Below, piece after piece: positions 4,377 to 6,737 of a stretch of DNA of 64,000 bases. A program made the position numbers and the translations under genes. The DNA comes from Candidatus Yonathbacteria bacterium. Lineage in GTDB: Bacteria; Patescibacteriota; Minisyncoccia; Phycocordibacterales; JACNGX01. The first letter of the stretch is position 1. Every line of letters begins with the position of its first letter. Location: assembly GCA_013334825.1 (NCBI GenBank), contig JAAXWR010000001.1, positions 139,769-203,768 on the forward strand, written 5' to 3'. The notes beneath the pieces were generated by a model. The model was not told the DNA's origin. It ran no database searches and was given only the letters and a program-made list of their open reading frames with translations.

Positions 4377-6737
4377 ATGCTCGTCTCATACAATTGGCTT
4401 AAAAACTATCTTGGCGACAGTGCGCCGACACCGGAAAAGATTGCGGAGCTTCTTACGCATGGGGCATTTGAGATTGAAGAGATGCGCACAGAGGGGAATG
4501 ATACGCTCATTGATGTGGATGTACTCCCGAACAGGGCGCATGACTGTTTGTGTCACAAGGGTATTGCGTGTGAAATTGCGCATCTCGCGAACATACCGTT
4601 TATCAAAAAATCTGGTGAATCTGTTCCTGTTACGTCCGACAAAACCATTTCTATTGCGGTGGAAGATACTGTTGCGTGCAAACGCTATAGTGTACGAGTC
4701 ATTGAGAACGTGACAGTGACAGACTCCCCGGCATGGCTCAAAGAGCGTCTTACTGCGATCGGACAACGCTCTATCAATACGGTTGTTGATGCCAATAACT
4801 ATACGATGTATGACATGGGACAGCCACTCCATGCCTTTGATATGGATAAACTGGCTGGGGGCATTGTCGTACGCCGTGCCAAAGACGGAGAGTCGCTTAC
4901 GACATTGGATAATAAACAGGTTATACTTTCTTCTGAGGATTTGACGATGTCCGATGGAGAAGGGCTGCTTGCCATTGCCGGTATTAAAGGTGGGAAGAAA
5001 GCCGAGGTAGATGCGCAGACAACAACTATCGTCATTGAATCGGCGAACTTTCTCGGTTCGGCGGTACGGAAAACTTCCGTGCGTACCGGTATTAAGACAG
5101 ATTCTGGAAAGCGTTTTGAAAACGGGCTCACACCAGAAATTGCACATGAAGCGATGGAACAAGTGACGGCGCTTATCTTGGAACTTTCTCCAGGAGCAAA
5201 AGCGGGAGAGATTGTTGATGTATATCCCAAGCGTCCGGCACCGTATCAATGTGGTTTCGCGCTACCTCATGTGAATAAGCTCTTAGGGACAGCATTGTCT
5301 CAGGACGAAATAACACATATCTTAACGCAACTAGAACTTCCGTATAGTGTCGTAGAACATCCACGAGCGCATATCGGAGGGCGGGCGAAAACATGTTTGC
5401 ATACACCGCATAAAATCGGCGCGAGTATTACCTATGATGCTCCACAGGCATTTGATTGTTCGTCGCTTATTGCATATCTCTATGCCGATGCAGGGATGCA
5501 AATACCGCGCATGACGGTTGATCAGTATGTCTTTGGAGAAGAGATTACGAAAGAACAGTTGCAAGAAGGGGATGTTGTCTTTTTCAATTCACAGGATGGA
5601 AATATTTTTTATGAAACAAAAGAATATTTTCCAGGGGTATCTGTTCCCGAAGGTGTTGATCATTGTGGATTGTATATAGGGAATGAACAAATTATTCATA
5701 GCTCACGAAAAAATGGGAGAGTGGCGCAGGAGAGTATGCAGACCATGTCTGAGACGTATACCATTGTCGGATATCGTCGCATGCCACATATTGATGAGAC
5801 ACACGTTGCTGTTACTGTTCCTGCGGAACGTCTTGATATCCGCATCGCTGAGGACTTGATTGAAGAAATCGGTCGTGTGTATGGGTATGACAAGATTGCC
5901 CCGAAAGAGCCGTTCGTGCTTCACTCGCCGACAGTTCTTCCGATATATTATGTATCAAACGCCGTGCGTTCTGTGCTGAACAAAAATGGATGTAGTGAAA
6001 TATACACATCATCATTCAGAAATGTTGGCGATATCGAAGTGCTCTATCCTGCCGCTTCAGATAAAAATTTCTTGCGTACGGATCTCGCGACGAGTATGAT
6101 GGACCGTCTCGCATTCAATGCGCGCAATATGGATTTGTTTGGCATGGACCATATTGTAATGTTTGAAATCGGAAGCGTTTTCACAAAGGCAAAAGGGGAG
6201 CAGGTGCTTCTCTGTATTGGTGCCATGTATCCGCAGATGAAAGAAGGAAAAGCAAAAGAAACAGCGAAAGGATATATGACTGAGATGATGAACTCTCTCT
6301 CAAGCGCGCTTGGGATAGAAGGGGTCGTCTTTTTCTCTGAACAAGAAACAGAAAAAGGGTATGTGGTGGAAATAGACCTCGGCGCACTTTCATCGGAGGT
6401 AACGATTCCTGATACATACGGAGACGTGCTTCTCACTTCCGATACGATGCCCCTCTACAAACCATTTTCCGTGTATCCGTTTATGACACGTGATATTGCC
6501 TTTTGGACTCCCGCAGGAACAAGTGCTGATGAGGCACGCGAAGTTGTCGTCGGAGAAGGGCACCCACTCATTATCCGCACAGATATGTTTGATACATTTG
6601 AAAAAGACGAACGTGTGTCGTATGCGTTCCGTATAGTATTTCAAGCGGTTGATAGAACGCTGACTGATGAGGAAGTGAATGCGGTGATGGAGGGGGTGTA
6701 CGCGCGGGTTGGTGAGAAGGGATGGGAGGGACGCTAG
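4377..6737 (+). CDS. pheT: phenylalanine--tRNA ligase beta subunit lacking the N-terminal OB-fold tRNA-binding domain and carrying an NlpC/P60-like insertion in the B5 domain
   Basis: B3/4 start [23 protein letters not shown], B5 ends [13 protein letters not shown] ... [33 protein letters not shown], and a C-terminal FDX-ACB domain ([17 protein letters not shown]). Between the two B5 halves lies a ~150-aa NlpC/P60-like segment ([20 protein letters not shown] ... GDVVFF ... [16 protein letters not shown]). Confidence 0.9.
   Translation: [786 protein letters not shown]

Follow-up and report, generated by a model that had tools for sequence, protein, structure and literature searches.

The DNA analysed here is a stretch of 64,000 nucleotides from contig JAAXWR010000001.1 of a Candidatus Yonathbacteria bacterium, a group that NCBI taxonomy places in the Parcubacteria group of the Patescibacteria; the whole stretch is referred to below as the window. 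Its pheT gene encodes the beta subunit of phenylalanyl-tRNA synthetase (PheRS), and nested within the B5 domain of this subunit lies a cysteine peptidase domain of the NlpC/P60 family. The gene is a single unbroken open reading frame (ORF), and its product is identical in sequence to a protein annotated by NCBI in a metagenome-assembled genome of Candidatus Yonathbacteria (locus tag HGB03_00625). The bacterial equivalog model TIGR00472 (pheT_bact) scored 411.3 bits against a cut-off of 402.65, and the Pfam domains follow in the expected order: B3_4, a split B5, tRNA_synthFbeta and FDX-ACB. The AlphaFold2 (AF2) model of the whole protein reached a predicted local distance difference test score (pLDDT) of 92.4, and the top Foldseek matches of PheT were bacterial PheRS beta chains (E 1e-50). 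The gene and its domains are arranged as follows.

4377..6737, + strand: pheT, 786 residues, PheRS beta subunit with a nested NlpC/P60 domain and without the B2 OB-fold; assigned on the basis of TIGR00472
4377..4661, + strand: domain B1 (residues 1-95); the B2 OB-fold normally found between residues 40 and 41 is missing, as seen in alignments to the relative P0074 and to Staphylococcus haemolyticus PheT
4674..5189, + strand: B3/4 editing domain (residues 100-271), PF03483 at 202 bits, editing residues kept
5238..5354, + strand: N-terminal half of B5 (residues 288-326), strand-helix-helix-strand; Pfam B5 (PF03484) matches in two stretches
5355..5801, + strand: NlpC/P60 (MEROPS C40) cysteine peptidase domain (residues 327-475, 149 residues) in the beta-hairpin "wing" of B5
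5802..5891, + strand: C-terminal half of B5 (residues 476-505), a strand plus a helix with a 13-residue motif
5952..6332, + strand: B6/7 catalytic-like module (residues 526-652), PF17759 at 34.2 bits
6468..6719, + strand: B8 or FDX-ACB anticodon-binding domain (residues 698-781), PF03147 at 59.1 bits

The initial annotation, made by reading the letters and ORF translations, had proposed that B5 is split by about 150 residues at a point where Escherichia coli PheT has a handful. Both parts of that proposal were confirmed: the insert measures 149 residues, and a phmmer alignment to E. coli PheT (3pco_B), in which query residue 319 pairs with residue 433 and query residue 480 with residue 447, leaves 13 residues in E. 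coli against 160 in the window PheT. The second B5 stretch (residues 457-504) maps to PF03484 profile positions 21-67, and the insert therefore follows approximately position 20 of the B5 profile. In the AF2 model the N-terminal half of B5 runs strand-helix-helix-strand (strand 290-295, helices 296-303 and 309-318, strand 323-326) and is followed by the insert and then by a strand and a helix; this order of elements places the peptidase in the beta-hairpin wing of the winged-helix B5. The C-terminal half retains R485, D487, E496, E497 and G503, invariant or nearly so across the 120 best homologs (40-95% identity), the set on which all counts out of 120 below are based.

The identity of the insert as NlpC/P60, suggested by the same annotation, was borne out by profile and structure searches. 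PF00877 matched the excised insert with 73.5 bits (E 1.6e-20; gathering score 23) and, within whole PheT, residues 356-464 with 67.8 bits (E 9e-19). Modelled alone with 25 homologs, the insert reached a pLDDT of 96.7 and a predicted template modelling score (pTM) of 0.91, in agreement with the expectation of an independent papain-like fold. Foldseek against the PDB returned 63 matches at E<=0.001, and all 50 listed were NlpC/P60 proteins; the best was the Clostridioides difficile autolysin Acd24020 (7cfl; E 5.5e-12, template modelling (TM) score 0.86-0.88, root-mean-square deviation (rmsd) 1.8-2.2 A), followed by the active DL-endopeptidases MepS/Spr, CwlT, YkfC, LytE, CwlO and SagA. As modelled, then, the insert is a canonical NlpC/P60 domain with a papain-like fold.

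Among weaker papain-like Pfam matches of the insert, Amidase_5 scored above its cut-off, and C92 (PF05708, 16.3 bits against 27) and LRAT (PF04970, E 0.061, 14.1 bits against 24.3) scored below theirs. Membership of LRAT/PLAAT or of YaeF (C92) was rejected, the order of active-site residues in the insert being Cys, His, His and not circularly permuted. Within NCBIfam, PheT matched the inactive RipD at 51.3 bits, about the same score as RipB. No second NlpC/P60 domain was found in the window by hidden Markov model (HMM) search.

The insert is acidic, with a median isoelectric point (pI) of 5.3 and a net charge of -5. Its mean pairwise identity across the 120 homologs is 0.49, compared with 0.45 for B1, 0.59 for B3/4, 0.51 for B5, 0.37 for B6/7 and 0.54 for B8; by this measure, its conservation equals that of the core domains of PheT. 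The GC content across it is slightly lower (0.39-0.42 at 5401-5850 against 0.45-0.50 in the flanks).

The N-terminal region required a correction. PheT had been thought to start directly at a B3/4 motif, but the N-terminal approximately 40 residues of B1 are present, the 11-residue motif in question is part of the second half of B1, and Pfam B3_4 starts at residue 100. The accompanying claim that the OB-fold is lost holds insofar as B2 is missing, and the Pfam scan gave no PF01588 (B2 tRNA-binding OB-fold) match in the window PheT; the loss, however, lies inside B1 and is not new, many PheRS beta proteins of the Candidate Phyla Radiation (CPR) having already been noted to lack B2 (PMC5370408). 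Residues 1-34 pair with residues 1-34 of P0074, a 901-residue relative that keeps the OB-fold (E 9e-09), and residues 41-141 pair with its residues 154-255 (E 9e-34), PF01588 falling in the alignment gap; S. haemolyticus PheT aligns in like manner through its residues 1-39 and from 156 onwards. Because both flanks align to P0074 around its PF01588, B2 was excised from inside B1: on these alignments about 115 residues are cleanly missing and the B1 N-terminus is kept. The editing residues H265, E334 and T354 of E. coli PheT align to H152, E221 and T241 of the window, of which H152 and E221 are invariant and T241 is at least 90% conserved in 71 homologs.

Canonical PheRS (Thermus thermophilus 1PYS, E. 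coli 3PCO) shares with the window the order B1, B3/4, B5, B6/7, B8 and the upstream pheS. Unlike it, the window enzyme has a 149-residue peptidase in the B5 hairpin, a deleted B2 and a PheS without the coiled coil. The window PheRS is a minimal enzyme that nevertheless gained a domain.

Predicted active site and substrate pocket

Alignment to 7cfl pairs the FDCS, VDH.G.YIGN and IIH motifs of the insert with the catalytic Cys, His and His of the autolysin, in accordance with the Cys-His-His triad that had been anticipated. The codons given for the first two residues in the initial annotation were correct; that for His441 was placed one nucleotide too early, at 5696..5698. The predicted active-site features are as follows.

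5457..5459, + strand: predicted catalytic Cys361 (TGT) within FDCSS; pairs with the catalytic Cys of 7cfl
5661..5663, + strand: predicted catalytic His429 (CAT) in the VDHCGLY motif; aligns to the corresponding His of 7cfl
5697..5699, + strand: predicted third residue of the triad, His441 (CAT), within IIHSS; aligns to the corresponding His of 7cfl
5595..5654, + strand: family-specific beta-hairpin (residues 407-426) between the GDxVF strand and the strand of the catalytic His; absent from canonical NlpC/P60 domains

Among the embedded homologs Cys361 is present in 120/120, His429 in 119/120 and His441 in 120/120, and the Cys, His, His triad is invariant in 18/18 stand-alone relatives, which are described below. 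Further conserved residues of the insert across the 120 homologs are D360, S362, G373, P377, R378, D382, Q383, G398, D399 and F402. The conserved triad suggests that the insert is an apparently active enzyme.

Two features set the family apart. The alignment to 7cfl leaves a 14-residue gap at the hairpin of residues 407-426, which is itself conserved (E413 in 103/120, E416 in 98/120, G420 and G426 each in 115/120), and a 4-residue extension before Cys361 gives an invariant Y-D-A-P loop. In other respects the insert resembles the p60-type C40 amidases (Acd24020, 7CFL; E. coli MepS/Spr; Bacillus subtilis LytE and CwlO), with which it shares the fold (TM 0.8-0.88, rmsd about 2 A), the triad and the motifs PY.xG, FDCS, PRxS/T..Q, GDxVF and HxGxY...IH. 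In contrast to these amidases, it is nested in a domain of a cytoplasmic synthetase, has neither a signal peptide nor a wall-binding domain, and carries the 4-residue YDAP-loop extension, the 14-residue extra hairpin and an unconserved Trp position in the gamma-D-Glu pocket.

That pocket was compared with YkfC, where it consists of Tyr226, Trp228, Asp237, Ser239 and Ser257 and where Arg255 takes part in the hydrogen-bond network (PMC2954226). The definition of gamma-D-Glu-specific NlpC/P60 proteins in the same work comprises strictly conserved Tyr226, Trp228, Asp237 and Ser239 plus the triad (PMC2954226). The YkfC residues map onto the insert by alignment as follows, with counts out of the 120 homologs.

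Tyr226: position 345; Y 100/120, H 20/120; His in the window
Trp228: position 347; variable, the commonest being Y 28, L 20 and I 18 of 120, also F; Ile in the window
Asp237: D360; 116/120
Ser239: S362; 106/120
Arg255: R378; 113/120
Ser257: position 380; S 51, T 33 and A 32 of 120

Judged from this mapping, the gamma-D-Glu pocket of YkfC is largely but not strictly kept, and a gamma-D-Glu-type specificity of the insert is plausible but unproven.

YkfC itself (Bacillus cereus/B. subtilis; also Chlamydia trachomatis, PMC9928106) is a signal-less cytosolic NlpC/P60 protein with a Cys-His-His triad, as predicted for the insert, and equivalents of its D-Glu-contacting Asp, Ser and Arg are conserved here. 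The two differ in that YkfC is free-standing, has two SH3b domains, an SH3b domain supplying Tyr118 in that subfamily, and reads the free L-Ala amine through Asp256. The insert has none of these and carries Met, Ile or Val at position 379, and the features that define the YkfC subfamily (Asp256, SH3b) are absent from it. In the genome-reduced Chlamydia, the cytosolic signal-less NlpC/P60 protein recycles peptidoglycan tri- and tetrapeptides and shows no activity on intact sacculi, and a homolog from Simkania that lacks SH3b domains is likewise functional in the assay used there (PMC9928106). Chlamydia YkfC is the closest functional precedent.

Distribution, reduced relatives and the C39_2 neighbour

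PF00877 lies in the same place in 120/120 best homologs, which are labelled as Yonath-, Campbell- and Lloydbacteria, Paceibacterota and Parcubacteria. A scan of GTDB (one genome per species) with two insert motifs demonstrated that relatives are encoded in 528 GTDB species. We fetched 80 matching loci, which bear Parcubacteria/Patescibacteria-type names or the generic "uncultured bacterium" and include the complete Campbellbacteria genome CP011215; 19 third-party annotation (TPA) assemblies among them carry the unchecked label "uncultured Candidatus Saccharibacteria". The whole of PheT is covered by one high-scoring segment pair in 70/80 loci, contig ends cutting most of the others. Some copies have been named "C40 family peptidase" or "beta subunit-related protein" by the NCBI pipeline.

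When 1.84 billion cluster representatives were searched with a profile, 179 clusters reached E<=1e-30. The majority of the representatives listed are about 780 residues long and match at approximately residues 330-490. The listed clusters consist of the PheT-embedded or B5-linked family plus multi-repeat proteins with summed repeat scores, and no close free-standing donor lineage was found among them. The multi-repeat proteins P0121 (1183 residues), P0122 (666 residues) and P0127 (398 residues) have 6-10 tandem NlpC/P60 repeats, are unrelated to PheT and rank high because their repeat scores add up. In P0121 and P0122 the Cys is replaced in most repeats (GF[ND][GSI]SGF for FDCSG), and the last one or two alone keep it.

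Misassembly or a frameshift fusion was rejected: the gene is one ORF, and the same insertion point recurs in independent NCBI, JGI, ENA and Logan assemblies. An intein was likewise rejected, as the initial annotation had argued from the junctions: at VVE|HPRAH and DETH|VAVTV there is no nucleophile and no HN motif, the fold is that of NlpC/P60, and the Pfam scan found no Hint, intein, LAGLIDADG or HNH family in PheT. The insert occurs lineage-wide within Parcubacteria and is real, ancient and under selection.

The profile search also retrieved stand-alone B5::NlpC/P60 proteins of about 199-234 residues. These start with Met at the first B5 strand and continue with the NlpC/P60 domain, the last B5 strand and a short terminal helix. 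They are real genes, lying inside contigs of up to 116 kb. In L081-083, L085, L087-088, L089, L094, L073 and the P0228 contig, the neighbouring gene encodes a single-chain PheRS-like protein of 379-389 residues, a PheS core (PF01409) joined to FDX-ACB (PF03147). Representative coordinates are as follows.

L081:8001-8669, stand-alone B5::NlpC/P60
L084:8001-8600, stand-alone B5::NlpC/P60
L085:5001-5681, stand-alone B5::NlpC/P60
L087:4258-4938, stand-alone B5::NlpC/P60
L089:3900-4565, stand-alone B5::NlpC/P60
L093:846-1505, stand-alone B5::NlpC/P60
L094:1606-2286, stand-alone B5::NlpC/P60
L081:6862-7998, single-chain PheRS-like
L085:3856-5004, single-chain PheRS-like
L087:3113-4261, single-chain PheRS-like
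L089:2761-3903, single-chain PheRS-like
L094:435-1580, single-chain PheRS-like
L073:2787-3917, single-chain PheRS-like

The stand-alone gene usually overlaps the stop of pheS::FDX-ACB by 1-4 nucleotides, and the synteny of these loci (GT2 on the minus strand, pheS, X, gyrB, class II aminoacyl-tRNA synthetase, dnaE) is common to the window. Because of its B5::NlpC/P60 make-up and its position in the pheT slot of this shared synteny, the small gene is the sole remnant of pheT beside a single-chain PheRS, B1, B3/4 and B6/7 being gone and B8 moved onto PheS. In the stand-alone forms the N-terminal half of B5 is shortened and the EEIGRxYGY helix has decayed, while the triad is intact, which indicates that selection acts on the peptidase and not on the role of B5 in PheRS. 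In several of the stand-alone proteins next to single-chain PheRS, the family-specific hairpin is longer by 14-16 residues. In a neighbour-joining tree without support values, the stand-alone forms fall inside the embedded family and do not make up one clade.

The single-chain proteins score 232-242 bits on TIGR00469 (pheS_mito), below its cut-off of 258, and equally on NF051887 ("PheS-related mystery ligase SrmL"), just below its cut-off; they are described here by architecture, with no assignment to either family. The architecture is that of human FARS2 (3CMQ), the mitochondrial single-chain PheRS of PheS core plus FDX-ACB, as in L081:6862-7998 and its relatives. Unlike in mitochondria, the Parcubacteria proteins are accompanied by a B5::NlpC/P60 remnant gene. 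Some Parcubacteria PheRS have converged on the mitochondrial single-chain design yet keep B5::NlpC/P60, usually together with a C39-like peptidase. That the module is kept after PheRS has been reduced points to the peptidase as the selected function.

This second peptidase is a recurrent neighbour. A Peptidase_C39_2 (PF13529) gene lies downstream of insert-bearing pheT, on the same strand, in 50 of the 72 loci with enough sequence downstream, and within 150 nucleotides in 42 of the 72. It is found directly 3' of the stand-alone gene in L081, L084, L093 and L094 (156-188 residues) and one gene further in L089; examples are given below.

L081:8666-9172, C39_2 gene
L084:8593-9159, C39_2 gene
L010:5338-5850, C39_2 gene

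Searching from the C39_2 side yielded three more contigs with pheS, pheT(NlpC/P60), C39_2 and gyrB, one of them with an extra gene between pheT and C39_2. Among distinct C39_2 proteins Gln10 is conserved in 57/57, Cys24 in 57/57 and His115 in 56/57. No signal peptide was found in the C39_2 N-termini inspected, and the protein gave no match to PDB sequences at E<=1 and no NCBIfam model. L084 has no pheS near its stand-alone gene, and a holB-like AAA gene adjoins the pair of stand-alone gene and C39_2 there; the pairing of NlpC/P60 with C39_2 thus survives outside the PheRS context.

Proposed function and its alternatives

The initial annotation had suggested a moonlighting, regulatory or processing role; the evidence now favours an autonomous enzymatic module. 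The explanation that we consider probable, with moderate confidence, is that B5 of PheRS beta carries a vertically inherited cytoplasmic thiol amidase that functions apart from tRNA charging. An ancestor of a large part of Parcubacteria would have gained a complete p60-type amidase domain at the tip of the B5 beta-hairpin, and the domain would then have been inherited vertically as a folded, catalytically competent module. In the predicted mechanism, His429, oriented by His441, would activate Cys361, which would attack an amide bond through an acyl-thioester intermediate, in a substrate groove presumably bounded by the YDAP loop and the 20-residue hairpin. Because PheRS is cytoplasmic and PheT has no signal peptide, the substrate would be a soluble cytoplasmic molecule; we would guess at a gamma-D-glutamyl-type (muro)peptide or an isopeptide resembling it, which may be cleaved for salvage or recycling. 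In most relatives the enzyme probably acts jointly with the C39_2 peptidase encoded next door. The peptidase would probably stand outside tRNA charging and editing, with PheT, and specifically B5, serving as its carrier and scaffold. The intact B3/4 editing residues, the acidic insert and the L084 gene without a nearby pheS all speak against a role in tRNA chemistry.

Several observations weigh against such an amidase. The gamma-D-Glu signature has gaps: in place of Trp228 there is Y, L, I or F (Ile347 in the window), Tyr226 is matched by His345 in the window PheT and by His in 20/120 homologs, and Ser257 is matched by Ala in 32/120. The YkfC-specific Asp256 is absent, its equivalent being M, I or V at position 379 in the 120 homologs, and no SH3b domain was found in PheT by Pfam. 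A tblastn search of the 64-kb window at E<=10 found no C39_2 homolog; the C39_2 partner is consequently not obligatory, and synteny kept by descent, instead of a functional link, could account for much of the C39_2 linkage. The 1-4 nucleotide overlap of pheS::FDX-ACB with the stand-alone gene hints that the module still associates with PheRS, and the proposal does not account for the choice of B5 as the place of insertion or for its constant retention. The position of B5, which in canonical PheRS contacts the B3/4 helices and the alpha subunit (PMC12449066), and the coupling of the remnant to pheS keep a tRNA-directed role alive.

Such a role could take the form of an additional site of hydrolysis or transfer, directed at the products of the synthetase itself: Cys361 would attack Phe-AMP or the ester bond in aminoacyl-tRNA-Phe that is (mis)acylated or N-blocked, which would give thiol-based proofreading or an LRAT-like transfer of Phe to another acceptor. 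In its favour, the peptidase is nested in the domain that in canonical PheRS contacts B3/4 and the alpha subunit (PMC12449066) and is kept, with the short pheS::FDX-ACB overlap, in exactly those lineages that lost B3/4. The NlpC/P60 superfamily includes acyltransferases with thioester intermediates (LRAT/PLAAT), and weak LRAT matches occur on the insert (E 0.061) and on the L081 stand-alone protein (E 0.00066). These scores remain under the Pfam threshold, however; the canonical p60 amidase motifs are all kept, and the best matches are peptidoglycan amidases. A median pI of 5.3 is unfavourable for tRNA binding, the editing residues of full-length PheT are intact and leave no gap to fill, the L084 stand-alone gene is not beside any pheS, and the invariant EE..G.xYGY helix of B5 decays in the stand-alone forms. 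We therefore regard this role as unlikely. A related and rather improbable version sees B5::NlpC/P60 as an unrecognised thiol-based accessory of PheRS, engaged in proofreading or deacylation, or in aminoacyl transfer through a Phe-S-Cys361 thioester, with Phe-tRNA-Phe, mis- or N-acylated tRNA-Phe and Phe-AMP as candidate substrates; if true, it would explain why, of the whole beta subunit, B5::NlpC/P60 alone is kept, translationally coupled to pheS, where PheRS has been reduced to a mitochondrial-like single chain lacking B3/4.

Nested or appended hydrolase domains are familiar from synthetases, lineage-conserved examples being CP1 of Leu/Ile/ValRS, INS of ProRS, N2 of ThrRS and B3/4 of PheRS. 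To our knowledge none of these editing domains is a papain-like thiol peptidase; all are aminoacyl-tRNA deacylases with folds of their own. Their substrate is aminoacyl-tRNA, a substrate considered unlikely for the insert.

The module might instead be catalytically silent, like mycobacterial RipD, and stabilise the minimal PheRS or recruit a partner. This PheRS has been stripped of both tRNA-binding appendages, the PheS coiled coil and B2, and a compensating module is conceivable; the match to inactive RipD is about as good as that to RipB, and the Tyr226-equivalent oxyanion residue is His in the window PheT. That Cys, His and His are invariant in the 120 embedded copies and in the 18 stand-alone ones, at identities as low as 30-40%, is nevertheless hard to understand without catalysis, and the active-site neighbours D360, S362 and R378 are conserved too. 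The acidic surface argues against tRNA binding, and P0074 and P0093 keep B2 yet carry the insert, indicating that it is not a simple replacement of B2. A catalytically silent role accordingly has little probability.

Very unlikely is a true cell-wall DL-endopeptidase, for which PheRS beta would have to moonlight outside the cell or at the membrane after non-classical export or lysis, acting on its own wall or on the wall of the host cell to which the episymbionts attach. Patescibacteria are generally regarded as living on the surface of host cells, to which they attach, and the closest matches are the secreted autolysins Acd24020, MepS, LytE, CwlO and SagA; on the other hand, PheT, the stand-alone proteins and C39_2 have no signal peptide, lipobox, SH3b or LysM, and the domain forms part of a multi-subunit enzyme that is essential and cytoplasmic. 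An artefact (chimeric assembly, frameshifted fusion of two genes, or intein-like mobile element), to which the slight GC dip over the insert might lend colour, is practically dismissed by the single ORF, the architecture shared across independent assemblies, the lack of intein features and the high-confidence prediction of the whole protein.

Aminoacyl-tRNA synthetases are among the most conserved enzymes, and their accessory domains nearly always have to do with editing, with tRNA binding or, in eukaryotes, with signalling. A papain-like amidase of cell-wall type inside a synthetase would represent a novel class of accessory domain, and here the active site is intact in more than 500 species of a lineage that is uncultivated and genome-minimal. 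The possibility raised by the initial annotation, that the segment is a widespread known variant of B5, applies in one half: the variant is widespread within Parcubacteria, and no paper describing it was found. No description of the nested architecture, the stand-alone remnant or a bacterial single-chain PheRS was found in open-access articles and bioRxiv, a search that did not cover subscription journals; the combination of PheRS beta with NlpC/P60 is apparently undescribed in the literature searched, while the absence of B2 is not new. Should salvage of peptidoglycan peptides prove true, it would show how amino-acid-auxotrophic episymbionts obtain D-Glu and diamino acids; an aminoacyl-tRNA substrate would mean a new quality-control chemistry.

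Neighbouring genes of the window

The genes around pheT with assigned families are the following.

2530..3267, + strand: pheS, 245 residues, catalytic core only; PF01409 at 327 bits, TIGR00468 at 293.6 bits
7501..9654, + strand: gyrB; Pfam DNA_gyraseB, Toprim and other gyrB families

TIGR00468 matches PheS only from profile position 70, so that the N-terminal coiled coil, which contacts tRNA in canonical bacterial PheRS, is absent. PheS of the relatives L090-L092 is also 231-255 residues long, and the short PheS is therefore a feature of the lineage. The gyrB gene serves as the downstream synteny anchor, with the same order in L081, L085, L087, L089 and L090-L094.

Between pheS and pheT, which elsewhere are separated by a median gap of 13 nucleotides, lies an ORF of 289 residues at 3442..4311 (+ strand), termed ORF-X, with a GC content of 0.33-0.40 against about 0.47. 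It matched no Pfam family above threshold and had no homolog in more than 90 related loci; it is therefore not considered part of the system and resembles a gene that was inserted into the operon in this lineage alone. A strongly hydrophobic ORF of 107 residues at 6878..7201 (- strand), probably membrane-spanning, lies between pheT and gyrB; it gave no Pfam match and no homolog in related loci, and it occupies the spot of the C39_2 gene in most relatives. Further upstream, a gene for a bestrophin-like (PF14023) membrane protein at 1735..2454 (+ strand) lies between the GT2 gene and pheS. At a similar position, on the other strand, the single-chain PheRS loci have an unannotated gene of about 220-230 residues.

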